DNA of 46,029 nt, from the UHGV virus genome UHGV-0229940, one strand, 5' to 3'. The translations under genes and the position numbers were made by a program. The notes beneath the pieces are model-generated. The model saw only the letters and a list, made by a program, of their open reading frames with translations, was not told the DNA's origin and searched no databases. This stretch comes from a virus. This document shows positions 8,717-17,489 of the stretch, in pieces. Numbering within the stretch: the stretch's first letter is position 1; the number at the start of each line of letters is the position of its first letter.

Positions 8717-10132
8717 ATGAGCGAGTTATTTAAACATGCGCACCTTCATGCAGGTCGAACTGAAAATGGTGCTGTAAACCATACTTCATCAATGTCTGCT
8801 CTGGTAGACTTCTACAAAGCCGCTGGCTCAAGCCGTAGCAATGTAGAAATCTTACCAGACCTGTTCTACAAAGCTTTGCGTGAGGATGTTGATGTTGCAG
8901 TTCGTATTTTACTGCATATGCGAGATGTACGAGAAGGTATGGGTGAGCGTAAAGCTTTCCGAACTGTTTTACTTCAAGCACTTGAAGACAAGGTTTTAGA
9001 GCCTACGCAGGTTCTTCGCATTATGGATAAGATTGCAGAACTTGGTCGTTTTGATGACTTCAAAATCTTCGTAGGTACTCGTTTCGAGACAGATGCCTTC
9101 AAACACCTAGAAGCAGCATTACTAGAACCTGCAACAGCAGGTTTGGCGGCTAAGTGGTTACCACGAGTCAAACCACGTCATAAGCAGTTTGTAAAACGTT
9201 TCTGCAAGTTTGCCAACTTGAGTGAGAAAGAGTACCGCACACTGTTGTCTGCACTATCTGATACAGTTGAGCAAAAAATCTCTGCTAATGAGTTTGGTAA
9301 GATTGACTACAGTAAGATTCCTTCACTTGCTGCTGCACGTTACCAAAAACTGTTTAACCGCAAAGATGGAGAACGCTACAAAGCTTACATCGAGTCCTTA
9401 TCAAAGGGTGAGACTAAGATTAATGCTGGTGCTGTTTACCCATACGATGTAATTAAATCTGTTAAGCATGGTAATGCAGATGTTGCTAATGAGCAGTGGA
9501 AAGCACTACCAAACTGGATGGCAGATGGTGAAAACATCTTGTGTATGTCTGATGTTTCAAGCTCAATGTCTTGGGTGAATTTTGGTTCAATTACTGCTCT
9601 TGATATTGGTGTTTCACTTGCATTGTATGTAGCAGAACGCAATACAGGTTGCTTCAAGGATGAGTTAATGGTTTATTCAACAAACCCTCACTTCATCGAA
9701 CTGAGTGGTGATTTACGAAACCGTCATCGTCAGGTGATGCGACATGTTGAATATGGCTCAACTAACTTACAAGCAGCTTTTGACCGCATTCTTGAGGTAG
9801 GTAAGAGAAACAACTTGACTCAGAAAGACATGCCAAGTAAGCTTATCATCTTCTCAGATATGGAGTTCAATCAGGTTGATGGAGCTAACGGTCGTACAAA
9901 CTTTGAAGCAATTCAGAGTAAGTACAAAAAAGCTGGGTACGAAATGCCTCAACTGGTATTCTGGTACTTAGCAAACCGTAATGGTACTTGCGAAGTGTCT
10001 GTTAAGGATAACGGTGTAGCAATGGTATCTGGTTTTTCTCCAGCTACTTTAAAAGCTCTGCTTGGTGGTGAGAAGTTTGACCCAATCAGTGTAATGCTCA
10101 AAGCAGTAATGATTGACCGTTACATCTGGTAA
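8717..10132 (+). CDS. von Willebrand factor A (vWA) domain protein with MIDAS motif; Ro60/TROVE-like two-part architecture is a hypothesis
   Basis: 471 aa; DxSxS MIDAS motif in ILCMSDVSSSMSW about residue 275; about 270 aa N-terminal region upstream of the vWA fold. Confidence 0.8.
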   Translation: MSELFKHAHLHAGRTENGAVNHTSSMSALVDFYKAAGSSRSNVEILPDLFYKALREDVDVAVRILLHMRDVREGMGERKAFRTVLLQALEDKVLEPTQVLRIMDKIAELGRFDDFKIFVGTRFETDAFKHLEAALLEPATAGLAAKWLPRVKPRHKQFVKRFCKFANLSEKEYRTLLSALSDTVEQKISANEFGKIDYSKIPSLAAARYQKLFNRKDGERYKAYIESLSKGETKINAGAVYPYDVIKSVKHGNADVANEQWKALPNWMADGENILCMSDVSSSMSWVNFGSITALDIGVSLALYVAERNTGCFKDELMVYSTNPHFIELSGDLRNRHRQVMRHVEYGSTNLQAAFDRILEVGKRNNLTQKDMPSKLIIFSDMEFNQVDGANGRTNFEAIQSKYKKAGYEMPQLVFWYLANRNGTCEVSVKDNGVAMVSGFSPATLKALLGGEKFDPISVMLKAVMIDRYIW

Positions 10133-10150
10133 AAAGTTTTAAAAAGGGTA

Positions 10151-10179
10151 TTGACAATGTGTTTGATACCCTTTAATAT
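10151..10179 (+). promoter_or_regulatory. sigma70-like promoter (TTGACA, 17 nt spacer, TAATAT) overlapping inverted repeat GGGTAT/ATACCC
   Basis: Consensus -35 at 10151-10156 and -10 at 10174-10179; lies upstream of the first tRNA. Confidence 0.55.
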
Positions 10180-10241
10180 GTTCTACATAGAAACGAAATG
10201 AGAGCTTTTCTAAGATACTGAAAAATATTTTAAAAAAGTTC

Positions 10242-10270
10242 TTGACAACCACTAAAAAATAATGTTAAAG
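10242..10270 (+). promoter_or_regulatory. second promoter-like TTGACA box followed by inverted repeat AACCACT/AGTGGTT
   Basis: TTGACA at 10242-10247; weak -10 candidates; 7 bp inverted repeat spanning the -10 region. Confidence 0.3.
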
Positions 10271-10297
10271 TGGTTACATAGAGTTTGAAAAGTTTAT

Positions 10298-10374
10298 CTC
10301 TGTTTAGCTCAGCTTGGTAGAGCGTTCCGTTTGGGGCGGTAAGGCCGGAGGTTCAAGTCCTCCAACAGAGACCA
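10298..10374 (+). tRNA. tRNA-Pro (anticodon TGG)
   Basis: Manual cloverleaf: acceptor CTCTGTT/AACAGAG, T-arm GGAGG-TTCAAGT-CCTCC, anticodon loop TTTGGGG, CCA encoded. Confidence 0.7.
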
Positions 10375-10381
10375 AATTAAT

Positions 10382-10456
10382 GTTCCAGTAGACAAAATGG
10401 TAAAGTCACCACTCTTTCAAAGTGGATATCTGAGGGTTCAAATCCCTTCTGGAACG
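10382..10456 (+). tRNA. tRNA-Glu (anticodon TTC)
   Basis: Acceptor GTTCCAG/CTGGAAC, anticodon stem CCACT/AGTGG, loop CTTTCAA. Confidence 0.7.
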
Positions 10457-10466
10457 CAAGTTTTGA

Positions 10467-10540
10467 CAGAAGACCAATTACAGCAAACTTAATCTACTCA
10501 TCTGACACGAAATCGGACAAAGAAGATATTTGGTCTGGTC
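10467..10540 (+). ncRNA. inter-tRNA structured spacer element, copy 1 (5' box CAGAAGACC-NNN-TACAGCAA, 3' box GGTCTGG; AGACCAAT pairs with ATTTGGTCT)
   Basis: Conserved boxes with a complementary flank whose sequence differs between copies while pairing is kept. Confidence 0.5.
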
Positions 10541-10549
10541 ATTGAGAAT

Positions 10550-10626
10550 TGCGGGTATAGAGAAAGGGCGTCTCACATGTCTCATTAGCATGGTATCGGC
10601 AGGTTCGACTCCTGCACCCGCCTCCA
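10550..10626 (+). tRNA. tRNA-Met (anticodon CAT); position 1:72 is a T:C mismatch
   Basis: T-arm GCAGG-TTCGACT-CCTGC, acceptor 3' ACCCGCC, anticodon loop CTCATTA, CCA encoded. Confidence 0.6.
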
Positions 10627-10632
10627 ATTTTG

Positions 10633-10694
10633 CAGAAGACCGTATTCAGCAACAAAATACTTTTTGCGGATAAAAGAAAAAACACGGTCTGGCA
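10633..10694 (+). ncRNA. inter-tRNA structured spacer element, copy 2 (AGACCGT pairs with ACGGTCT)
   Basis: Same CAGAAGACC ... CAGCAA 5' box and GGTCTGG 3' box as copy 1, with compensatory change in the pairing flank. Confidence 0.5.
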
Positions 10695-10703
10695 ATGTAT
10701 TAA

Positions 10704-10780
10704 GGTTAGGAAGCACATAAGGTATGTGCGGTCGCCTGTTAAGCGAATGGCACAGGGTTCGAATCCCTGACTAACCGCCA
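10704..10780 (+). tRNA. tRNA-Asn (anticodon GTT)
   Basis: T-arm CAGGG-TTCGAAT-CCCTG, anticodon loop CTGTTAA, CCA encoded. Confidence 0.7.
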
Positions 10781-10788
10781 AATTAAAT

Positions 10789-10876
10789 GTGTCGTTATCC
10801 CGTAGATGGTAGCGGTGGGGACTGTAAATCCCTTGTCATTGAGACTCGGTAGGTTCGACTCCTACACGGCACACCA
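10789..10876 (+). tRNA. tRNA-Tyr (anticodon GTA), long variable arm
   Basis: 88 nt; anticodon stem GGGGA/TCCCT, loop CTGTAAA; T-arm GTAGG-TTCGACT-CCTAC. Confidence 0.7.
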
Positions 10877-10881
10877 ATAAA

Positions 10882-10958
10882 GGCTATGTAGTTTAACTGG
10901 AGAAAATACTCCCCTGTCACGGGAGATGATGTGAGTTCAAGTCTCATCGTAGCCGCCA
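10882..10958 (+). tRNA. tRNA-Asp (anticodon GTC)
   Basis: Anticodon stem CTCCC/GGGAG, loop CTGTCAC; acceptor GGCTATG/CGTAGCC. Confidence 0.7.
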
Positions 10959-11019
10959 ATTTTGAGAGGGCTATTTAGCCCCTCCCTTAAAGAGTTCTTA
11001 CGAGTATTCTTTAAAGGAG

Positions 11020-11095
11020 CAGAAGACCAAATACAGCAAGAATGTATGAAATTTCAAGCCAATTTAATTTTGAAAATTTAAAACTTGGTCTGGCT
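11020..11095 (+). ncRNA. inter-tRNA structured spacer element, copy 3 (AGACCAA pairs with TTGGTCT)
   Basis: Conserved 5' and 3' boxes with covarying complementary flank. Confidence 0.5.
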
Positions 11096-11106
11096 CAACA
11101 AATTTA

Positions 11107-11238
11107 CAGAAGACCGTTTACAGCAAAACTTAAACAATCTATTTCTCCGGTAAAGAAAAGGCGAAGGTTCGATTCCTTCACTCGGCAGATGTCGAGTTGG
11201 TGTAATGGTAGCACTTAAGATGATAAACAACGGTCTGG
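11107..11238 (+). ncRNA. inter-tRNA structured spacer element, copy 4 (AGACCGTT pairs with AACGGTCT), enclosing a permuted tRNA-like segment
   Basis: Same boxes as copies 1-3; internal segment 11139-11214 has tRNA anticodon-arm, T-arm and acceptor-3' features followed by acceptor-5' and D-arm features. Confidence 0.45.
11139..11214 (+). pseudogene. permuted or fragmentary tRNA-like sequence (3' two-thirds precedes a complementary 5' acceptor and D-arm)
   Basis: Anticodon-like stem TTTCT/AGAAA, T-arm GAAGG-TTCGATT-CCTTC, acceptor-3' ACTCGGC, then GTCGAGT (pairs with ACTCGGC) and D-arm GTGTAATGGTAGCAC. Confidence 0.35.
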
Positions 11239-11241
11239 TAA

Positions 11242-11257
11242 TTATCTTTGTAGATAA
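11242..11257. repeat. palindromic hairpin TTATCT-TTGT-AGATAA (left copy)
   Basis: Exact reverse complement of the copy at 11366-11381. Confidence 0.6.
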
Positions 11258-11365
11258 GTTATTAAGCTTACCTGTGAGTATGCGACCACAAAGGGTGAAA
11301 GGGTAAATTCTAGATTTAAACCCAAAAAGGCACATCGCTACAGACCTTAAGCAAGTCTGGGTAGC

Positions 11366-11381
11366 TTATCTACAAAGATAA
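11366..11381. repeat. palindromic hairpin TTATCT-ACAA-AGATAA (right copy, inverted relative to 11242-11257)
   Basis: The two copies bracket a 108 bp segment. Confidence 0.6.
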
Positions 11382-11387
11382 TTTAAT

Positions 11388-11463
11388 GGAAGTGTAGCAG
11401 AATGGTGATGCGGCAGACTTTTAATCTGACAGGCGATGGGTTCGAATCCCTCCACTTCTACCA
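11388..11463 (+). tRNA. tRNA-Lys (anticodon TTT)
   Basis: Anticodon stem CAGA/TCTG, loop CTTTTAA; acceptor GGAAGTG/CACTTCT; CCA encoded. Confidence 0.6.
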
Positions 11464-11467
11464 ATAT

Positions 11468-11544
11468 GGTTCAGTCGCAGATAAGGTAATGCAAGGGTCT
11501 CATAAGCCCTATGAATGTGGGTTCGATTCCCATCTGAACCTCCA
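11468..11544 (+). tRNA. tRNA with CAT anticodon (Met, initiator or Ile-lysidine type; GGG/CCC run in anticodon stem)
   Basis: Perfect acceptor GGTTCAG/CTGAACC, anticodon loop CTCATAA, T-arm GTGGG-TTCGATT-CCCAT. Confidence 0.7.
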
Positions 11545-11545
11545 A

Positions 11546-11621
11546 GCTGGTATAGTTAAGAAGGTTATAACACTCCCCTGATAAGGGAACATCGGTGGTT
11601 CGATTCCACCTACCAGTACCA
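11546..11621 (+). tRNA. tRNA-Ile (anticodon GAT)
   Basis: Anticodon loop CTGATAA; T-arm GGTGG-TTCGATT-CCACC. Confidence 0.65.
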
Positions 11622-11636
11622 ATTTCAATAAAGTTG

Positions 11637-11665
11637 TTGACATTGAGATGTGACTACTTTATAGT
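11637..11665 (+). promoter_or_regulatory. strong sigma70-like promoter inside the tRNA array (TTGACA, 17 nt spacer, TATAGT)
   Basis: -35 at 11637-11642, -10 at 11660-11665. Confidence 0.6.
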
Positions 11666-11868
11666 AACCTTAGTTTTCGTTGCGTAGCGTCTATTTTGCA
11701 AATTTAAAATAAATGCAAACGACAATGTTTTTCTGGCAGTAGCTTGATAGGCTAAACACCAGTGAGGTCTTCCAATCCCTCATCAAAGAATTTGGCGTAC
11801 TAGCCCACGGTATGATTAATAAGGTGGGCATCTTTAAGGGCTTTCTAAGAGAGTCTTTAAAGATTAAT
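11666..11868 (+). ncRNA. about 200 nt promoter-proximal non-tRNA spacer; candidate small stable RNA
   Basis: No ORF and no tRNA fold found; contains stem GCCCAC/GTGGGC (about 11789-11814); downstream of the promoter at 11637. Confidence 0.3.
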
Positions 11869-11945
11869 GCACCCTTAGTTCAATTGGATAGAGCAACGGT
11901 CTTCTAAATCGTTAGTTACAGGTTCGAATCCTGTAGGGTGTGCCA
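11869..11945 (+). tRNA. tRNA-Arg (anticodon TCT)
   Basis: D-arm GTTC-AATTGGATA-GAGC, anticodon stem ACGGT/ATCGT, loop CTTCTAA. Confidence 0.7.
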
Positions 11946-12087
11946 ATTAGTTAGCAGATTACTTAGACGACCTAAGCGGGTCTTCCTGTAGGGAGGTGGT
12001 CTGTATCTCATGTTTTCCAGAACATGTAAATAATCTGAGAAGGGGCTTTACAGTGTTGAGATAATACGGTAAGCTTCGAATTATAAT

Positions 12088-12170
12088 ATGGGACGATGTT
12101 AAGACTCTAAGGCATGAGCAACGGCCTCCAAAACCGTTTCAAAGGGGTTCAACTCCTCCGTCCCATGCCA
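12088..12170 (+). tRNA. tRNA-Trp-like (anticodon CCA) with about 7 extra nucleotides between acceptor and D-arm
   Basis: Perfect acceptor ATGGGAC/GTCCCAT, anticodon stem ACGG/CCGT, loop CTCCAAA; total about 80 nt without CCA. Confidence 0.5.
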
Positions 12171-12183
12171 AAGTCTTATTAGG

Positions 12184-12271
12184 GGTAGGTAGCGGCTAAT
12201 GGTAGCCAAACTGTCTTGAAAACAGTTGCCACTGTAGAGATACGGTGAGGGTTCGACTCCTTTACTTACCG
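12184..12271 (+). tRNA. tRNA-Ser (anticodon TGA), long variable arm
   Basis: Anticodon stem ACTGT/ACAGT, loop CTTGAAA; 88 nt. Confidence 0.7.
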
Positions 12272-12429
12272 CCTAATAAGGTTTAAAGCCAAGCTTCATT
12301 CGGATGTTGCTTTGGTATCCCTCGTGTATTGTCGTACAAGCACAGTAAAGCACCTAGTAGGTGTCACGGAGAAGAGATAATATCAAGCTCTCCAAAGGTT
12401 CTAGTCACCGGATTAAACAAGACTATGCA

Positions 12430-12451
12430 AAGACCTTTTTAGGTCTTTTTA
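12430..12451 (+). terminator. terminator-like hairpin inside the tRNA array (AAGACC-TTTTTA-GGTCTT then T-run)
   Basis: 6 bp perfect stem followed by TTTTT. Confidence 0.4.
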
Positions 12452-12529
12452 GAGGGCTTCTAAGGTTATTACAGCTTGTTGTGGAACCTTGTTGCTTAGG
12501 TTCTTAGAAGTTCTCTAAAAAGATTTAAT

Positions 12530-12607
12530 GGGAGATTGACGGTAATTGGTAAACCTACCATCCTTAGAAGTTGGTGTTTGAGGGTTCGAATCCCTTGTCT
12601 CCTACCA
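12530..12607 (+). tRNA. tRNA with anticodon TAG (Leu decoding) but short variable arm
   Basis: Acceptor GGGAGAT/GTCTCCT, T-arm GAGGG-TTCGAAT-CCCTT, anticodon loop CTTAGAA; 78 nt. Confidence 0.5.
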
Positions 12608-12614
12608 AATTAAT

Positions 12615-12690
12615 GCAGGTGTAGCAAAATGGTTATGCGGCTGACTCTTAATCAGTAAGACGATGGGTTCAATTCCCTCCACCTGTACCA
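12615..12690 (+). tRNA. tRNA-Lys (anticodon CTT)
   Basis: Anticodon stem GCTGA/TCAGT, loop CTCTTAA; paralogous to the Lys-TTT gene. Confidence 0.6.
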
Positions 12691-12696
12691 GACATT

Positions 12697-12772
12697 GGGG
12701 ATGTAGTTTACATGGTTAAAACATAAGTTTTGCAAACTTAAGTACAGGGTTCAATTCCCTGCTTCTCCACCA
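12697..12772 (+). tRNA. tRNA-Ala (anticodon TGC) with G3:U70 identity pair
   Basis: Anticodon stem TAAGT/ACTTA, loop TTTGCAA; G at position 3 opposite T at position 70. Confidence 0.7.
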
Positions 12773-12778
12773 ATTAGT

Positions 12779-12853
12779 GCATCCATAGTTTAAACGGGAA
12801 AATTACAGTCTTCCAAACTGAGGTTGAGGGTTCGATTCCCTCTGGATGCTCCA
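12779..12853 (+). tRNA. tRNA-Gly (anticodon TCC)
   Basis: Perfect acceptor GCATCCA/TGGATGC, anticodon loop CTTCCAA. Confidence 0.7.
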
Positions 12854-12860
12854 AATTAAT

Positions 12861-12937
12861 GCTGCTTTCGTATAATTGGCTATTACACATCCCTTGTAAG
12901 GATGGAAATGCGGGTTCGAGTCCTGTGAGCAGCACCA
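12861..12937 (+). tRNA. tRNA-Thr (anticodon TGT)
   Basis: Anticodon stem CATCC/GGATG, loop CTTGTAA. Confidence 0.7.
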
Positions 12938-13032
12938 ATTCAGAGGTCAAGTGAAAGACCGCTGGTGTCAACTGAAGACCGTAACAAATTCCACGGAGTT
13001 GAGTTAGCGGCACAACTTCAGACCTCTTTCAC

Positions 13033-13107
13033 ACTCGCTTAGTTTATATGGTAAAACATCACCCTTACAAGATGAAGAAAAAGGTTCAAGTCCTTTAGTG
13101 AGTACCA
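13033..13107 (+). tRNA. tRNA-Val (anticodon TAC)
   Basis: T-arm AAAGG-TTCAAGT-CCTTT, anticodon loop CTTACAA. Confidence 0.6.
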
Positions 13108-13108
13108 T

Positions 13109-13186
13109 GTTCCAGTATCCCAATTGGCAGAGGATGCAAGCTCAAACCTTGTATTAGTGACGGTTCGAATCCGTCTTGGAACACCA
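13109..13186 (+). tRNA. tRNA with anticodon CAA (Leu decoding) but short variable arm
   Basis: Acceptor GTTCCAG/TTGGAAC, T-arm GACGG-TTCGAAT-CCGTC, anticodon loop CTCAAAC. Confidence 0.5.
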
Positions 13187-13191
13187 ATTTT

Positions 13192-13267
13192 GCAGGATTA
13201 GTTCAAATGGATAGAGCAACAGTCTACGAAGCTGTTAATAGGGGTTCGAATCCCTTATCCTGCGCCA
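13192..13267 (+). tRNA. tRNA-Arg (anticodon ACG)
   Basis: Perfect acceptor GCAGGAT/ATCCTGC, anticodon loop CTACGAA. Confidence 0.7.
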
Positions 13268-13284
13268 GATAAAAAGGTGATACT

Positions 13285-13527
13285 ATGCAAACATTAACAG
13301 TAGTTGAACATGAAAACTGTGAGAATATTGAGTTTGTCAGGGTCATTGGTGTTGAACACCACATTTTCTTAAAAGTAGGGTACTTATGTGACCCCGCTAG
13401 AGTAGAAAGATTTATACGTGATTGTTTTGGTGGTAGACAGCTAAAGAGTGTTATTTTTGAGACAGTTTTACCAGAAGGTTTAGAAACGAATAATAACATT
13501 TATCTCCTTACAAGGATTAGACGATGA
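13285..13527 (+). CDS. hypothetical protein encoded inside the tRNA array
   Basis: 80 aa ORF with SD AAAGGTGA upstream. Confidence 0.5.
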   Translation: MQTLTVVEHENCENIEFVRVIGVEHHIFLKVGYLCDPARVERFIRDCFGGRQLKSVIFETVLPEGLETNNNIYLLTRIRR

Positions 13528-14081
13528 GATATTTAAAATATGCTTCATGGATTTTCCTAGCTTTGCTAGAACCATTAGCAGCAACCTTAGCAGTTATCTT
13601 AGCACCTTTCGTAGTTCCATTTTACAGTGAGAAGAAAGGCCACTTACCTTTCGGATTTAGATGGATGGAGACATATGACAACCCAATTGATGGTGACGAA
13701 GGTCATATCGAACGATGGGCTAAGATTAGAAAGATTGGTAAGCTGGGTGTCTACATGCAGAGAGTCGGATGGCTCTGGAGAAACAAAGCTTATAACTTCT
13801 CTTACCATGTATTAGGAAGAGATGTAAAAGATGTTACTAAGTGGAAAGGTAATATCAACGTAAGTTCTGACCCTGAAGATAATCAGACAGGTTATCTCCT
13901 AATGTGGAACAGTAATGCTTGGGGATTATTCGCTTTTATCCCATCAATTAAAGTCTTTGGTAAACAGTTTTACTGGAGAATTTATATTGGATGGAAACTA
14001 AAAAGTGTTGTCCCAGAAGAAAGAGCATTCTCAAGGGAAAGAGTTATGTTGGCATTCTTTATTCATCCACTGAGAAAGTAA
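13524..14081 (+). CDS. hypothetical membrane-anchored protein encoded inside the tRNA array
   Basis: 185 aa; N-terminal hydrophobic segment ASWIFLALLEPLAATLAVILAPFVVPF; 4 nt overlap with the upstream ORF. Confidence 0.6.
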   Translation: MRYLKYASWIFLALLEPLAATLAVILAPFVVPFYSEKKGHLPFGFRWMETYDNPIDGDEGHIERWAKIRKIGKLGVYMQRVGWLWRNKAYNFSYHVLGRDVKDVTKWKGNINVSSDPEDNQTGYLLMWNSNAWGLFAFIPSIKVFGKQFYWRIYIGWKLKSVVPEERAFSRERVMLAFFIHPLRK

Positions 14082-14089
14082 AGATTTAA

Positions 14090-14165
14090 AGGGGATTAGT
14101 TTACAAGGTTAAAACCTCGGTCTTTGAAATCGAAGAAGTTGGTTCAATTCCAACATCCCCCGCCA
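14090..14165 (+). tRNA. tRNA-Gln (anticodon TTG), weak 1:72 pair
   Basis: D-stem GTTT/AAAC, anticodon stem TCGGT/ATCGA, loop CTTTGAA. Confidence 0.65.
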
Positions 14166-14167
14166 AT

Positions 14168-14246
14168 GCTCCATTACTCCAATTGGCAGAGAGGCCAGAC
14201 TTAAAATCTGTGTTATGTATCGGTTCGAATCCGATATGGAGTACCA
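14168..14246 (+). tRNA. tRNA with anticodon TAA (Leu decoding) but short variable arm
   Basis: Acceptor GCTCCAT/ATGGAGT, T-arm ATCGG-TTCGAAT-CCGAT, anticodon loop CTTAAAA. Confidence 0.5.
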
Positions 14247-14251
14247 AATTT

Positions 14252-14327
14252 AGCGGTATAGCATAACTGGCAATGCAACAGTCTCTGAAGCTGTCCTATT
14301 AAGGTTCAAATCCTTATGCCGCTGCCA
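14252..14327 (+). tRNA. tRNA-Gln (anticodon CTG)
   Basis: Anticodon stem ACAGT/GCTGT, loop CTCTGAA. Confidence 0.6.
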
Positions 14328-14358
14328 CTTCTAAGGGTTCTTACGAGAGTCCTTAAAT

Positions 14359-14434
14359 GTGGCCTTATCATAAATGGTAATGACCCATGCTGTGAACATG
14401 GTCTATACGGGTTCAAATCCCGTAGGTCACCCCA
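14359..14434 (+). tRNA. tRNA-His (anticodon GTG)
   Basis: Anticodon stem CCATG/CATGG, loop CTGTGAA; T-arm ACGGG-TTCAAAT-CCCGT. Confidence 0.7.
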
Positions 14435-14439
14435 ATTTA

Positions 14440-14516
14440 TAGTCCAAGTAGCTTATATGGTTAAAGCGCGTGTCTGAAAAACATGAGAAGAGGGTTCAAA
14501 TCCCACTGGACTACCA
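14440..14516 (+). tRNA. tRNA-Phe (anticodon GAA)
   Basis: Perfect acceptor TAGTCCA/TGGACTA, anticodon loop CTGAAAA. Confidence 0.65.
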
Positions 14517-14532
14517 ATTTCAAAGGTGCTTA

Positions 14533-15267
14533 ATGAAAGAGATGACAGAACAAGGTAAGGAGATTTTTAATCTCTTAAAAACCGGTAAAGGGTTTTCTAA
14601 CCCACTTATTACTGGTGCAGCAGTTCTCGGTGGAACCGTAGCTGCTTCTACATCACTTGTAAGCTCTATTAGTTCTGTAACAGACCCTACAATGCAGGAG
14701 AAACTTGTTGCTGCTGGACTTACAACAGTCCTTCTAAACAGCTTTACAACAAGCCTTACAAGCACTACAGCAACTACTAAGACCCTGACAGACTACGGTC
14801 AAAAATCTATTGATGAGTTTTCATCACGTATGCAGGTAGCAAAGGGATATTCCAATGTTATGGGTGCAGCAGGAGAACAAGTTGGTTGTACACCGTTCAG
14901 TGGTATTATGGGTGTTGCTACAGAATATGGTCAAAAAGCTATTGATACGATTAACAGTACACTAGAGAGTGTTAACGATGTATTAAGTGACTTACAAGAC
15001 GCTATTGACAAGGGTCTTGATACTGTTTCTGATTTAGCTAACCAAGCTGTCAGTAAGATTAATGAAGGTATCTCAAAGATTACAGCTTATGCAGATGAAG
15101 TTGTGCAGATGATTGAAGAAGAAGCTGCCCTTATTGCAGAGTACCTTAAAACGAATATCAATGGGTTCTTAGCAGGTATCTTACCAGACTGGTTTGATGA
15201 TGCCTGTAAAACTGGTGTAATTGACACTATTGCAACACCAGAAATGAAGAACGCATTACAGAAATAA
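14533..15267 (+). CDS. hypothetical Ser/Thr-rich protein encoded inside the tRNA array
   Basis: Six-frame ORF 14470-15267 would overlap two tRNAs, so start is placed at Met 14533 (MKEMTEQ ...); 244 aa. Confidence 0.6.
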   Translation: MKEMTEQGKEIFNLLKTGKGFSNPLITGAAVLGGTVAASTSLVSSISSVTDPTMQEKLVAAGLTTVLLNSFTTSLTSTTATTKTLTDYGQKSIDEFSSRMQVAKGYSNVMGAAGEQVGCTPFSGIMGVATEYGQKAIDTINSTLESVNDVLSDLQDAIDKGLDTVSDLANQAVSKINEGISKITAYADEVVQMIEEEAALIAEYLKTNINGFLAGILPDWFDDACKTGVIDTIATPEMKNALQK

Positions 15268-15361
15268 TGGAAGATTAACCCTAAAAGGTAAGGGAGCAGT
15301 TTGCTAAACTGCCAGTAGCTGAGAAATCGGTGTACCAGTTCAAGTCTGGTATCTTCCTCCA
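15268..15361 (+). tRNA. tRNA-Ser (anticodon GCT), long variable arm
   Basis: Perfect acceptor GGAAGAT/ATCTTCC, anticodon stem GCAGT/ACTGC, loop TTGCTAA; 94 nt. Confidence 0.7.
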
Positions 15362-15365
15362 ATTT

Positions 15366-15441
15366 GAATCCGTGACAGAAATGGCTATGTGCCTGTCTGC
15401 AAAACAGGTTTATAAGGGTTCGAGTCCCTTCGGATTCTCCA
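15366..15441 (+). tRNA. tRNA-Cys (anticodon GCA)
   Basis: Perfect acceptor GAATCCG/CGGATTC, anticodon stem CCTGT/ACAGG, loop CTGCAAA. Confidence 0.7.
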
Positions 15442-15480
15442 AGTTATTTTACTCTCTCTCTCAATTAAAATAATAATAAT

Positions 15481-15542
15481 GCCCTGCTATAAGTATTCTT
15501 CCTTTCGCTACCGAAGAGTATTTTTAGACAGGGCTTTTTTAC
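15481..15542 (+). terminator. long structured rho-independent terminator closing the tRNA array
   Basis: Outer stem GCCCTG/CAGGGC enclosing an imperfect inner hairpin, followed by TTTTTT at 15535-15540. Confidence 0.55.
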
Positions 15543-15665
15543 AGAGTTATACTTTATAGGAAGACTTATACAGTATGTCTCTGACGTACATTGTGGTTTC
15601 TCCTTGACGGTCTCTGTGCCGTCTTTTTTAAGGGGAAACATGGTTAATTATTTGGAGAAAACATA

Positions 15666-15866
15666 ATGAGTGAGACCGTTTACAAAGAACTTTATGAAGC
15701 TAATAAAAAGCTAGAATTTATGCAGAACACTATCATGGCAATTGCAGATAGATTATCTGTAGCAACAGGTATTGATATTAAAGAAGCATCTATGGATGCA
15801 CTTCTTGATGCTGTTGATGCAAAGTTCGAAGTTAAGAAAGAAGAGACTGCTACAGACTCTGAATAA
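15666..15866 (+). CDS. hypothetical small acidic protein upstream of terminase
   Basis: 66 aa ORF with SD GGAGAAAACA; terminase small subunit role not supported by motifs. Confidence 0.5.
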   Translation: MSETVYKELYEANKKLEFMQNTIMAIADRLSVATGIDIKEASMDALLDAVDAKFEVKKEETATDSE

Positions 15867-15887
15867 TTCTATTTGCGGAGGCGCTTA

Positions 15888-17489
15888 ATGGACTTAAATG
15901 CTGTTAAGCAGAAGCGAGTGGAAGATGTTAGGAAAGTCCTAGCTGGAGAGTTGGGGCTTTCTGATGAAGTAAAAGAAATTATTAAATCATTCGGTAAAGA
16001 CCCCTCTAAATTCCTTCCAACTCAAATTCTGACTTTATTAAGATACACACCAGACCAAGTTCGCCTTATCTTTAAATTGATGACTGATAAGAACTATGTA
16101 GCCCCTCAGCCGGGTTCTCAAGAGGTCTTTTTAAATACTAATGCTGACTTGGTTCTCTATGGTGGTGCTGCTGGTGCTGGTAAGACTGCCGCATTGTTAA
16201 TGGACTCTTTAAGATTTATTGAAGACCCTAACTATAATGCTGTATATTTCCGTCGAAATACAACACAGTTACAAGGTGGTTTATGGCCTGCTGCAAAGAA
16301 ACTATTTGGTAAGTTTGGTGGGATTCCTCACGAGCAGAAAATGACTATCACATTCCCTTCTGGGGCAACTATCAAGTTTACCTACCTAGAACTTGAAAAG
16401 CACGCTGAAGGTCATCAGGGTATTGAATACTCAGCTATTTACTTTGACGAAGGTACACACTTCTCTGCTTCACAGATTTCATACCTACAAACCCGTCTAC
16501 GTTCTGGTGCTGAAGGCGATTCATACATGAAGATTTCCATGAACCCAGATAGAGACCACTTTATTTACGATTGGGTAGAACCATTCTTAGACGAAGAAGG
16601 TTATCCAGACCCTGAAAAGTGTGGTCGTATTCGTTGGTATGTAATGAATGATGGTGTGATGGTTTCTGATTGGGAGAGAGACAAGATTCTTGAAATGTTC
16701 CCTCTTGAGATTCCTCAAACATACACCTTCATCTCTGGTACGATTGATGATAACCCAATCCTTGACTTCTTAGAGCCTAAGTACCGTGGTAAGTTGGAAA
16801 ACAACACTCCTGTAAACGTTGCAAGACTTCGTTTCGGTAACTGGAAGGCTCGTGCAGAAGGTTCAAACTATTGGCAAAGACAATGGTGTGAAATTGTTGA
16901 TTCACTCCCAGAAGATGTATTTGATGTTAGAGCATGGGACTTAGCAGCAACTTTACCATCTGAGATTAACCCTAATCCAGACTGGACAGCAGGTGTTAAG
17001 ATGGGTAAATCTAAAAAAGACGGTTGCTATTATATCATTGATGTAGTAAGATTTAGAGATAGACCCTCTGGAGTCGAAACACAAATCAATTTGACTGCTG
17101 AAAGTGACGGTAAGCGAACTGGTATTTTTATCCCTCAAGACCCAGGCGCTGCTGGTAAATCCTACGCAACATCCCTCATCAGGAAACTTGCCGAGAAAGG
17201 TTATCGAGCAAGAGCCAAACCAACAAATAAAGATAAAGTTACCCGCTTTGCGGGATTTTCTGCTGCTTCTGAAGCTGGACTTGTAAAAGTCTTGAGAGGT
17301 AGTTGGAATGAAGCTTACTTTCAAGAACTTGAAGGCTTTTGTGGTGACGGTAAAACTAAAGATGACCAAGTGGATGCTACCAGTGATGCTTTCAACAGTC
17401 TTAACGAAGTTAAATTATTCAAGCCACCATCAATGGGTGCTCACACAGATTTAGTGAGAGGAAACCCATATGAGGGGCTTAGACGTTGA
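15888..17489 (+). CDS. terminase large subunit
   Basis: Walker A motif LYGGAAGAGKT; size and position ahead of the portal; ATG at 15888 with GGAGG SD preferred over the TTG at 15873. Confidence 0.85.
   Translation: MDLNAVKQKRVEDVRKVLAGELGLSDEVKEIIKSFGKDPSKFLPTQILTLLRYTPDQVRLIFKLMTDKNYVAPQPGSQEVFLNTNADLVLYGGAAGAGKTAALLMDSLRFIEDPNYNAVYFRRNTTQLQGGLWPAAKKLFGKFGGIPHEQKMTITFPSGATIKFTYLELEKHAEGHQGIEYSAIYFDEGTHFSASQISYLQTRLRSGAEGDSYMKISMNPDRDHFIYDWVEPFLDEEGYPDPEKCGRIRWYVMNDGVMVSDWERDKILEMFPLEIPQTYTFISGTIDDNPILDFLEPKYRGKLENNTPVNVARLRFGNWKARAEGSNYWQRQWCEIVDSLPEDVFDVRAWDLAATLPSEINPNPDWTAGVKMGKSKKDGCYYIIDVVRFRDRPSGVETQINLTAESDGKRTGIFIPQDPGAAGKSYATSLIRKLAEKGYRARAKPTNKDKVTRFAGFSAASEAGLVKVLRGSWNEAYFQELEGFCGDGKTKDDQVDATSDAFNSLNEVKLFKPPSMGAHTDLVRGNPYEGLRR

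Follow-up and report, generated by a model that had tools for sequence, protein, structure and literature searches.

A tmRNA-related phage RNA with a start-less tag frame and a 5´ arm complementary to host tmRNA

The window analysed here, a 46,029-nt stretch of the virus genome UHGV-0229940, belongs to a Felix O1-like phage that matches phage HY02 at 98.9%, and raises the question of what the tRNA-free spacers within its tRNA cluster encode. The initial annotation described a near-consensus promoter followed by ~200 nt with neither a tRNA fold nor an ORF and by two further tRNA-free stretches, and proposed that these may encode small stable RNAs comparable with those of T4, non-tRNA RNAs of unknown function that are co-transcribed with phage tRNAs. 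ARAGORN, and Rfam at the gathering score, likewise detect nothing in spacer 1 (11666–11868), spacer 2 (11946–12087) or spacer 3 (12272–12529), and no Rfam family matched the spacers at that score to give them a T4-type identity. The core of the small-RNA proposal holds for spacer 1, which is promoter-driven, non-tRNA and non-protein and has a conserved structure; conservation and structure are also seen in spacers 2 and 3, which are confined to Ounavirinae.

The promoter, TTGACA-17-TATAGT at 11637–11665 on the plus strand, is of the sigma-70 type and matches 11 of 12 positions, is the best site in 9500–16500, and is conserved in Felix-like relatives, in agreement with its initial description. 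The number of promoter-like sites in this region is not above chance (17 versus 15.5 ± 4.0 in shuffles), and the site is credible because it is conserved in relatives and because two promoter contexts in other phages share the +1 AGUUUUCG; all three contexts place the RNA start at this sequence. The promoter geometry puts the predicted +1 at ~11672. RNase P cleavage (5´ processing) of tRNA-Arg(UCU), located at 11869–11945 on the plus strand, would leave the RNA 3´ end at 11868. The gene is thereby delimited to ~11672–11868 on the plus strand (~197 nt).

Spacer 1 is a discrete gene for a phage RNA. An nhmmer family match covers 11670–11834, with homologues across phage families, and blastn returns homologues at 70–81% identity in prophages and in unrelated phage groups. 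Copies occur in 600–800 records of phages of enteric bacteria that belong to unrelated groups (Felix-like, Vi1-like, N4-like, Webervirus-like and the lambdoid HK620/HK633), and prophages bearing the element are found in 157 of 5426 E. coli genomes (~3% of complete genomes). Escherichia, Salmonella, Klebsiella and Erwinia are the hosts of the carriers, some of them under consideration as agents of therapy or biocontrol. The element sits within a long late transcript in lambdoid phages; the HK633 copy lies between PR´/qut and the holin gene in a phage that has no tRNA cluster. The T4 analogy is unnecessary for spacer 1, because its RNA belongs to a tmRNA-related family that, in contrast to the T4 small stable RNAs, is also present in phages without any tRNA cluster. 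The copies in phage records are unannotated or mis-annotated as tiny hypothetical proteins, and no Rfam family covers the RNA. Spacer 1 scores 15.2 bits to the tmRNA model (RF00023) and 29.2 bits to permuted tmRNA (RF04321), the best family, and does not reach the gathering score of 47; both models align AAAAUAAAUGCAAACGACAA with high posterior probability.

The tmRNA-like character of the RNA shows in its tag frame, which was compared across 125 full copies. At 11715–11750 on the plus strand the window reads GCA AAC GAC AAT GTT TTT CTG GCA GTA GCT (ANDNVFLAVA), followed by TGA TAG and not preceded by a start codon. The context AUAAAU|GCA AAC GA, exactly 10 codons and a stop are found in 125 of 125 copies, and the frame itself varies (18 peptides, 36 nucleotide variants). 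Single-nucleotide codon differences are synonymous to non-synonymous at 562:422 in the GCA frame, a synonymous share of 57% against an expected 21.7%, compared with 26:1006 (2.5%) and 228:756 (23%) in the other two frames, a coding-type constraint on the GCA frame. Most copies carry an in-frame stop 4–10 codons upstream of the frame, and the stretch between the two contains no ATG, GTG or TTG. The start-less frame, the GCA resume codon that an A-rich linker precedes and the hydrophobic, Ala-rich C-terminus are hallmarks of tmRNA; among full tmRNAs, the nearest that were found are of the permuted kind and have tags of 10 residues (ANDNAFLMAA and ANDERFLMAA). A recent copy of the host ssrA is excluded, as sense-strand similarity extends over just ~18 nt around the resume codon.

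The spacer 1 RNA folds with a minimum free energy of −57.7 kcal/mol (z −4.12 versus shuffles), and its helices covary across the family, which bears out the structure conservation that the initial annotation proposed to look for. A small hairpin and A-rich linker directly 5´ of the resume codon (11692–11711, plus strand) are predicted from the single-sequence fold only; the counterpart of this hairpin in other types (helix 1) shows weak covariation. Downstream, an H5-like hairpin (helix 2; 11733–11762) pairs CUGG at 11733–11736, within codons 7–8, with CCAG at 11759–11762 and holds the stops in its loop; it is paired in 94.8% and changes from GC to AU in 10 sequences. Pseudoknot A (11763–11795) comprises UGAGG/CCUCA (helix 4; 11763–67/11778–82) and the loop pairing CCAA/UUGG (helix 5; 11772–75/11792–95), which are 99.2% and 96% paired, respectively, with three compensatory pairs each. 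Pseudoknot B (11796–11829) comprises CGUAC/GUAUG (helix 6; 11796–800/11810–14) and GCCCAC/GUGGGC (helix 7; 11803–08/11824–29), and its variants can also be read directly in the sequences. The fold ends in a 16-bp hairpin, AUCUUUAAGGGCUUUC-UAA-GAGAGUCUUUAAAGAU (11830–11864), followed by UAAU and tRNA-Arg; all of these elements lie on the plus strand. In other lineages, pseudoknot B is followed by a homologous stem that carries the motif yUAAGrGyAUU and whose loop often contains inserted modules. Over the family, 91.3% of cells pair, versus 34–44% when the partners are slid, and compensatory changes involve 14 pairs and 83 cells, a level reached by 0 of 500 shuffles. RNAalifold independently recovers three helices, including the H5-like hairpin. 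The stop in a helix-5-like loop and the pseudoknots 3´ of the frame again follow tmRNA, with support for two pseudoknots, not three.

No tRNA-like domain (a 7-bp acceptor stem with G3-U70, a T-arm and a 3´ CCA) is found in spacer 1 by ARAGORN at default settings, in the window or in relatives. Calls made at a lowered threshold, in the window and four other lineages, are weak or are artefacts that borrow halves of the neighbouring tRNA-Ile or tRNA-Arg. Neither a conserved 5´ acceptor strand nor an acceptor piece is found near the element, and the neighbouring modules differ by lineage.

The 5´ arm of the RNA, AGUUUUCGUUGCGUAGCGUCUAUUUU (11672–11697, plus strand), is antisense to nt 81–105 of the host tmRNA, which comprise the A-rich linker, the resume codon and codons 1–6, and it outranks every other antisense match to tmRNA nt 60–110 on both strands of the 46-kb window. 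Across the family, the 5´ 26–40 nt are antisense to tmRNA nt 68/81–105, and in other lineages the match reaches the 3´ strand of pseudoknot 1 (PK1). The arm is unpaired in the consensus fold, although in a single-sequence fold it is also able to pair partly with the GCAAACG of the RNA itself. Aligned with the reverse complement of E. coli ssrA, phage nt 1–36 score 39–47 against tmRNA nt 68–105, versus a null maximum of 28–34 (0 of 300 shuffles). The shorter match of the window type (nt 1–26 against tmRNA nt 81–105) scores 29, which is marginally above shuffles (2 of 300). In 23 of 25 distinct arms, tmRNA nt 105/106 marks the end of the best duplex; the arms are mutually homologous, and agreement among their variants is therefore not independent evidence. 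The divergent variants L045, L090 and L052 keep little beyond a 9–10-nt seed. Whole-length RNAduplex energies against E. coli tmRNA are no better than those of shuffles, a comparison that is uninformative because of the lengths involved, and arm-only duplexes and antisense alignment were used instead.

Two other accounts of this complementarity fail. It is not a general property of tmRNA 5´ regions, since E. coli tmRNA scores 17 against itself and genuine permuted tmRNAs score 10–14. Pairing of the arm with the frame of its own RNA is also excluded as the main explanation, with scores of 12–22 against the downstream RNA versus 27–46 against the host tmRNA. The target site does not differ between Escherichia, Erwinia, Pectobacterium, Serratia, Citrobacter, Raoultella and Enterobacter (Salmonella and Klebsiella lie outside the set inspected), and these genera match the listed hosts of phages that bear the element; the target is invariant across the genera inspected, which leaves no covariation between phage and host to look for. 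The complementarity was noticed post hoc, after inspection of the sequences. Taken with the scores above, these alignments argue for complementarity to host tmRNA beyond chance at a conserved, apparently single-stranded 5´ end.

The sequence features suggest that phages with the spacer 1 RNA block or reprogram host ribosome rescue. We tentatively favour a reading, to which we give slightly less than an even chance, in which the RNA docks on the host tmRNA, masks its template and supplies its own resume codon and tag frame. The RNA transcribed from its own sigma-70 promoter would have two functional halves. The single-stranded 5´ arm would seed on host tag codons 3–6, where AGUUUUCGU can pair with ACGAAAACU, and from there the pairing would zip across the resume codon and A-rich linker, reaching the 3´ strand of pseudoknot 1 in other lineages. 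The body would act as a tmRNA-type mRNA-like domain without a tRNA-like domain, with its linker, AUAAAU|GCA, start-less frame, stop hairpin and two pseudoknots, and would present the phage resume codon beside SmpB and the tRNA-like domain of the host. Translation by rescued ribosomes would end on the phage frame, so that the phage tag probably replaces the host tag, with A-ANDNVFLAVA in place of A-ANDENYALAA. That the arm pairs in vivo and that the phage frame is decoded is what we infer from these comparisons. Slightly less probable than this reading as a whole is a non-covalent chimera, a host tmRNA re-templated by the phage RNA, in which rescue continues with a phage-chosen C-terminal tag and the tagged product meets a different fate. 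We know of no precedent for a ribosome that resumes on a template tethered to tmRNA solely by base pairing outside helix 2 and the acceptor stem. At a minimum, host tagging would be blocked, as when an antisense oligonucleotide to tmRNA's mRNA-like domain stops trans-translation in vitro (PMC8012679).

This in vitro inhibition, together with the presence of the antisense arm and the missing tRNA-like domain, is also what would be expected of a pure antisense inhibitor or decoy. The arm would then shut off trans-translation or tagging, possibly via cleavage of the duplex, and the body would never be decoded, its tmRNA-like features only mimicking the host domain for stability or for S1/SmpB binding. 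We regard this as unlikely, though the strongest of the alternatives, for it leaves unexplained the fixed 10 codons, the conserved stop and a synonymous excess that the 36 nucleotide variants show only in the GCA frame.

It is rather doubtful that the RNA instead forms the coding part of a permuted-type phage tmRNA made of two pieces, with an acceptor piece (T-arm, acceptor stem and CCA) located elsewhere or in a neighbouring module. The Rfam ranking and the permuted nature of the closest full tmRNAs point in this direction, as do T-arm modules that often adjoin the element in prophages and the similarity, by reading, of GUUUUCGUC to the tmRNA D-loop motif GGUUUCGAC. However, the start at AGUUUUCG in all three promoter contexts comes without a 7-nt acceptor strand, and the neighbouring modules, besides varying, are missing from several lineages. 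ARAGORN calls nothing by default and at low threshold borrows halves of intact neighbouring tRNAs, and the complementarity to host tmRNA would be left unexplained.

Equally doubtful is that the spacers serve the tRNA operon mainly as elements for processing or protein binding and not as effectors, being either guide stems for RNase III/RNase P or Y-RNA-like partners of a Ro60-like protein, with the tmRNA resemblance of spacer 1 a decaying relic. The confinement of spacers 2 and 3 to Ounavirinae speaks for such a role. Spacer 2 (plus strand) has a fold z of −2.55, and a hairpin loop within it accepts an inserted hairpin in phage ESh22. Spacer 3 (plus strand, mapped here to 12274–12529, fold z −3.58) combines a 5´ hairpin that varies with a ~75-nt block that is invariant, a weak terminator-like hairpin at ~12429–12451 and a long hairpin at ~12440–12525 that adjoins tRNA-Leu. 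The hairpin that the initial annotation called terminator-like is present as AAAGACC/GGTCTTT followed by TTTTA, but a terminator scan makes no call there, and in the minimum-energy fold it competes with the long hairpin. In relatives, both spacers show G-U to A-U and compensatory changes. Between them, the tRNA that the annotation implied at ~12088–12171 (plus strand) is missed by ARAGORN and by Rfam at the gathering score (23 bits to the tRNA-Sec model); the region nevertheless folds as a cloverleaf with an enlarged D region, an atypical tRNA-Trp(CCA)-like gene at 12088–12170, and in Mooglevirus relatives compensatory changes turn its anticodon stem, AACGG/CCGUU, into GUAAG/CUUAC. No homologues of spacer 2, spacer 3 or the 10959–11387 gap were found outside Ounavirinae, and sequence comparison and folding give no sign that spacers 2 and 3 are separate stable RNAs as against processing elements.

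The processing-element account also draws on the three long stems, each followed, by reading, by AAAGAT(N)TTAAT and a tRNA, and on the report that an ortholog of the ORF at 8717–10132 is Ro60-like, with nearby annotated tRNAs suggested as Y RNAs (PMC11482910). The Ro60 similarity rests on this preprint; the ORF sequence gave no relevant match to PDB chains. Against this account, most phage families with the spacer 1 RNA have neither a Ro60-like gene nor a tRNA cluster, inspection by eye did not pick out the published YrlA motif GNCGAAN0-1G, and none of the Rfam Y RNA families matched. In a relic, the frame length, stop, synonymous bias and pseudoknot covariation of spacer 1 would not be maintained in phage families that are unrelated. 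The prophage modules that adjoin the element are likewise unsupported as YrlA Y RNAs, the same motif not being seen in them.

That the spacers encode small proteins is highly improbable: the earlier statement of a stretch with no ORF is true only loosely, as mechanical ORFs of 46 aa (minus strand, 11691–11831) and 48 aa (plus strand, 12361–12507) exist and are annotated in Bas63 and other records, but ORF lengths are not kept across family representatives (longest 0–65 aa on the minus and 5–44 aa on the plus strand), on which ground protein-coding readings are rejected, and the pattern of substitutions is that expected of the start-less GCA frame.

Almost all bacteria have tmRNA, which is a drug target, and to our knowledge no natural RNA antagonist or re-programmer of it has been described. 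A literature search on the tag peptides, on tmRNA-like RNA in these phage groups and on anti-tmRNA activity returned nothing beyond two genome notes that give an ARAGORN 'ssrA' call in Felix O1-like genomes. If docking and re-templating on the host tmRNA are correct, the RNA would represent the first natural re-templating of trans-translation in trans as well as tmRNA's first natural antisense regulator, and phages would be seen to manipulate ribosome rescue and tag-directed proteolysis. The stray 'ssrA' calls would be explained, and the RNA would offer a compact natural tool to alter the tmRNA tag in trans.

Several known systems share parts of this arrangement. The setting resembles that of the bacterial Y RNAs YrlA/YrlB, which Ro60 binds, with a Ro60-like gene directly upstream of the cluster and long stems in the spacers; their motif was not picked out by eye, Rfam gave no match, and the tmRNA-like family extends to phages without a Ro60-like gene. 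AgvB and AsxR are described as phage-encoded anti-sRNAs of EHEC prophages that base-pair with host non-coding RNA (PMC4104026); these are sponges for Hfq-dependent sRNAs, and none is known to target tmRNA or to bear a reading frame. Mycobacteriophage DS6A encodes a partial tmRNA, with the tRNA-like domain only, that is thought to interfere with host trans-translation (PMC4131195). DS6A thus keeps the tRNA-like half, which may titrate SmpB, whereas the half retained by the spacer 1 family is the other one, with an antisense arm in addition. Like tmRNA itself (SsrA, RF00023), the spacer 1 RNA has an A-rich linker, the UAAAU|GCA AAC GA resume context, a 10-residue tag of the form AN(D/E)xxxLxxA (ANDENYALAA in E. 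coli), a stop in a helix-5-like loop and pseudoknots after the frame; what sets it apart from tmRNA is that no acceptor stem, T-arm or CCA is found, together with the antisense match of its 5´ end to host tmRNA. The RNA also resembles the coding piece of two-piece tmRNA (RF04321 and relatives) as a separate frame-bearing RNA for which another RNA provides, here as proposed, the acceptor function. In genuine two-piece tmRNAs the coding piece starts with a 5´ acceptor strand and its partner is a dedicated acceptor piece, neither of which was found for the spacer 1 RNA; the partner to which its sequence points is the one-piece tmRNA of the host, engaged at the template region and not at the acceptor stem.

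The source of the window is, as judged from its sequence, a Felix O1-like myovirus; the region 11600-12560 shares 98.9% identity with Escherichia phage HY02 and is matched by 279 Ounavirinae records in blast searches. ARAGORN places 26 tRNA genes in 10298-15441, 24 of which are confirmed by Rfam, with no other family at gathering score. The initial annotation had singled out three tRNA-free stretches of this cluster, spacer 1 (11666-11868, with the RNA gene from about 11672), spacer 2 (11946-12087) and spacer 3 (12272/12274-12529), and neither ARAGORN nor Rfam yields a tRNA in any of them. The promoter it placed before spacer 1 (TTGACA-17-TATAGT, 11637-11665) holds up, with 11 of 12 matches and the top rank among promoter-like sites in 9500-16500, a class that shows no enrichment there (17 vs 15.5 in shuffles). 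The first stretch had also been described as free of ORFs, which needs relaxing: short mechanical ORFs overlap the stretches, and some records label such ORFs hypothetical proteins.

Spacer 1 is a predicted RNA gene that is widespread among phages. With 11622-11868 as the query, distant blastn found 625 phage records, and 11706-11830 is 70–81% identical in unrelated phages, which include the lambdoid HK633, the Klebsiella siphovirus KpV2811, the N4-like SP-076 and EC1-UPM, Erwinia phages, and, within the Ackermannviridae, Klebsiella phage T751 and Salmonella Vi1-like phages. The element is flanked by the PR'/qut site and the holin gene in HK633, lies downstream of a tRNA cluster in SP-076 and amid small ORFs in KpV2811, and is annotated neither in these three nor in the other loci inspected. 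With the HK633 version as the query, matches came from 825 phage records and from prophages, again unannotated, in 157 of the 5426 complete E. coli genomes. Viral contigs were scanned with two patterns and then with an nhmmer profile, which yielded 125 full-length copies (window copy, 11670-11834).

Several carriers show further features nearby. In T751, a 3.3-kb unannotated region that bears the element also contains an Rfam STnc100 match (L004 4117-4331; 48.8 bits vs a gathering score of 47). The late-operon leaders of HK633 (L003 2150-3170) and of prophage-like viral contigs (L037, L100, L045, L033, L046, L092) carry arrays of RNA modules that are delimited by the complementary motifs ACAACAGGTAAGAGCATT ... 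AGTGCTCTTTCC(GTTGTGG); among these modules are tRNA-like units with a T-arm, and cloverleaf-like units that GTTGTGGTG/CACCACAAC close. Bas63-type phages (L001 about 2523-2680; compare window 11622-11671) have an insertion of ~88 bp after tRNA-Ile and ahead of the RNA gene, with a TATACT-bearing upstream sequence in place of the TTGACA/TATAGT promoter and AGTTTTCG at an unchanged distance.

The 5' arm of the spacer 1 RNA, its first 26–40 nt, is by complementarity antisense to host tmRNA. At the 5' end, the invariant motif AGUUUUCGU is exactly reverse-complementary to ACGAAAACU, the sequence of codons 3–6 of the E. coli tag frame. Whole phage RNAs were aligned to the reverse complement of E. coli ssrA, with 300 shuffles as the null. 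In the common types, nt 1–36 match tmRNA nt 68–105, which spans the 3' strand of pseudoknot 1, the A-rich linker, the resume codon and codons 1–6, with scores of 39–47 vs null maxima of 28–34 (0/300 shuffles as high). The window type matches tmRNA nt 81–105 through its nt 1–26 (11672-11697) with a score of 29, attained by 2/300 shuffles, and three divergent variants retain little beyond the seed. The best duplex of the first 26 nt ends at tmRNA nt 105/106 in 23 of 25 distinct arms (-20 to -30 kcal/mol). The arms score 27–46 against host tmRNA vs 12–22 against their own downstream RNA; same-site scores for genuine tmRNAs are 17 (E. coli tmRNA, own 5' region) and 10–14 (permuted tmRNAs). Over both strands of the whole 46-kb window, the arm is the top antisense match to tmRNA nt 60–110. 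The host stretches covered by the Felix type and by the common type differ in part, with the same seed kept, a pattern expected from selection for pairing rather than from mere common descent. Escherichia, Erwinia, Pectobacterium, Serratia, Citrobacter, Raoultella and Enterobacter share an identical target, AAAGCCGCAAAAAA(A)UAGUCGCAAACGACGAAAACUAC, which is divergent in Pasteurellaceae and a Yersinia variant. Some Enterobacterales tmRNAs (bacterial loci L235, L239, L256, L302, L241 and L263; Yersinia, Sodalis and others) have another template region, AATAATTGCAAACGACTCGCAATACGAA, without the arm-matched site.

Downstream of the arm, the body of the RNA resembles tmRNA: the Rfam tmRNA and permuted-tmRNA models both align UUAAAAUAAAUGCAAACGACAA at high posterior probability, with 15.2 and 29.2 bits, respectively, for spacer 1 (gathering score of 47 not reached); no Rfam family matched the RNA. 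From a GCA (window 11715), exactly ten sense codons precede a stop in 125/125 copies, whose 36 nucleotide variants encode 18 tag peptides, such as ANEEMYLAVA, ANDDVVLMAA, ANDDLMLMAA and ANDEQFLAVA (ANDNVFLAVA in the window). For codon differences of one nucleotide among unique sequences, the ratio of synonymous to non-synonymous is 562:422 in this frame (21.7% synonymous expected), compared with 26:1006 and 228:756 in the remaining two; these counts are pairwise and phylogenetically non-independent, but the contrast between frames is large. Most copies have an in-frame stop 4–10 codons upstream of the GCA, with no intervening ATG, GTG or TTG. Coding-type constraint without a start codon is what characterizes a trans-translation template. 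Neither the tag peptides nor any account of a phage RNA that mimics tmRNA or is antisense to it were found in the literature, where subscription journals were thinly covered and an earlier description is possible.

Seven helices were tested on 25 diverse sequences (alignment A3). Codons 7–8 pair with a segment past the stop, so that the stop codons are looped, as is the stop codon in tmRNA helix 5. The loop of the next hairpin pairs downstream to form pseudoknot A, for which CCAG/CUGG, CCGA/UCGG and CCAA/UUGG loop/partner pairs are all found, and pseudoknot B follows directly. Overall, 91.3% of cells are paired vs 34–44% with partners slid by 1–3 columns; double changes affect 14 pairs (83 cells), and 0/500 shuffles reach the observed pairing and double-change values. 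RNAalifold independently finds three of the helices, with the first 20 columns free of pairing, and the window RNA has a folding z of -4.12. Pseudoknot B is succeeded by a long A/U-rich stem (11830-11864 in the window), and in prophage versions the loop of this stem often holds other modules.

This stem is one of three (11242-11381, 11830-11864 and 12440-12525) after each of which come AAAGAT(N)TTAAT and a tRNA (Lys, 11388; Arg, 11869; and Leu, 12530, respectively). They resemble a recurring module for processing or protein binding, and could be processing signals or partners of the Ro60-like protein encoded on the plus strand at 8717-10132 (471 aa; DUF2828 and DUF7788 domains; no sequence-level PDB match). 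According to a preprint (PMC11482910), its ortholog gp130 of Bas63 resembles Ro60 in structure and counters the Ppl defence system; the preprint also suggests that part of the tRNA annotations downstream are Y RNAs. A tRNA-free gap of 430 nt (10959-11387; homologues in Ounavirinae only) surrounds the first stem and its inverted repeat of 17 bp (11242-11258 with 11365-11381). In this gap, a T-arm and 3'-acceptor-like piece (~11160-11190) directly precedes a 5'-acceptor and D-arm-like piece (11191-11220), which is reminiscent of the order in a permuted tRNA.

Homologues of spacers 2 and 3 were found only within Ounavirinae. Alignment with Mooglevirus and other relatives reveals conserved hairpins that show compensatory as well as G-U to A-U changes, one loop that tolerates an additional hairpin, and an invariant block of ~75 nt in spacer 3; folding z is -2.55 for spacer 2 and -3.58 for spacer 3. 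Both are insertion sites, as relatives carry ORFs at the equivalent positions (an annotated HNH endonuclease in Michonne, L007 4070-4522; hypothetical proteins in L226 262-609 and L223 1255-1659). A hairpin is present near the suggested terminator (12430-12451), at about 12429-12451, although the terminator scan makes no call; it competes with the long hairpin abutting tRNA-Leu. Between the two spacers, a tRNA implied by the initial coordinates at 12088-12171 does fold as a cloverleaf, but is missed by ARAGORN and by Rfam at gathering score (23 bits to the tRNA-Sec model). It is listed as an atypical tRNA-Trp(CCA)-like gene (12088-12170) with a 7–8-bp acceptor stem and GCCA, a T-arm of normal form, an enlarged D region and an anticodon loop of 9 nt (or 7 nt, C-A closed); where the anticodon stem here is AACGG/CCGUU, Mooglevirus relatives have GUAAG/CUUAC.

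The spacer 1 RNA appears to lack a tRNA-like domain. ARAGORN run at default settings gives no tmRNA call for the window or for eight related loci; at lowered thresholds it reports the tag, but with a domain made of halves of intact neighbouring tRNAs or of weak matches. Such calls probably explain the ARAGORN 'ssrA' mentioned in two genome notes, on Moogle and Felix O1 (PMC4319497, PMC4392139); a 2014 census listed phage ssrA genes only in mycobacteriophages and Bacillus phage G (PMC4131195). In three promoter contexts (TTGACA-17-TATAGT in the window, TTGACA-17-TAGATT in the KpV2811 type and TATACT in Bas63), the promoter geometry would place the RNA start at or just before AGUUUUCG, which would leave no room for an acceptor strand. 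The closest full-length relatives are permuted tmRNAs in viral contigs (L047 309-788 and L019 7154-7563; tags ANDNAFLMAA and ANDERFLMAA), which ARAGORN calls at default settings, and the phage family may therefore have a two-piece tmRNA's coding piece as its ancestor.

A synthetic antisense oligonucleotide against tmRNA's mRNA-like domain blocks trans-translation in vitro (reviewed in PMC8012679), which makes masking of the host template by the phage RNA plausible. We tentatively favour a model in which the phage RNA would dock on host tmRNA and mask its template, the host Ala-tRNA-like domain and SmpB would enter the stalled ribosome, and translation would resume at the phage GCA, 17–24 nt past the duplex end, on the phage frame. 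This is the single model that covers the antisense arm, the constrained start-less frame and the absent tRNA-like domain together. A pure inhibitor of host tmRNA would account for the arm and agree with the oligonucleotide effect, and is rather unlikely given the constraint on the tag frame. A two-piece tmRNA would suit the permuted relatives and is improbable; the searches turned up no conserved acceptor piece.

If docking is followed by use of the phage frame, the fate of the tagged proteins may change. The C-terminal LAA of the host tag is read by ClpX, and AANDxxY is read by SspB; the phage tags retain AAND, with altered ends of LAVA, LMAA or LAAA. The retrieved E. coli ssrA encodes ANDENYALAA, in contrast to ANDNVFLAVA in the window.
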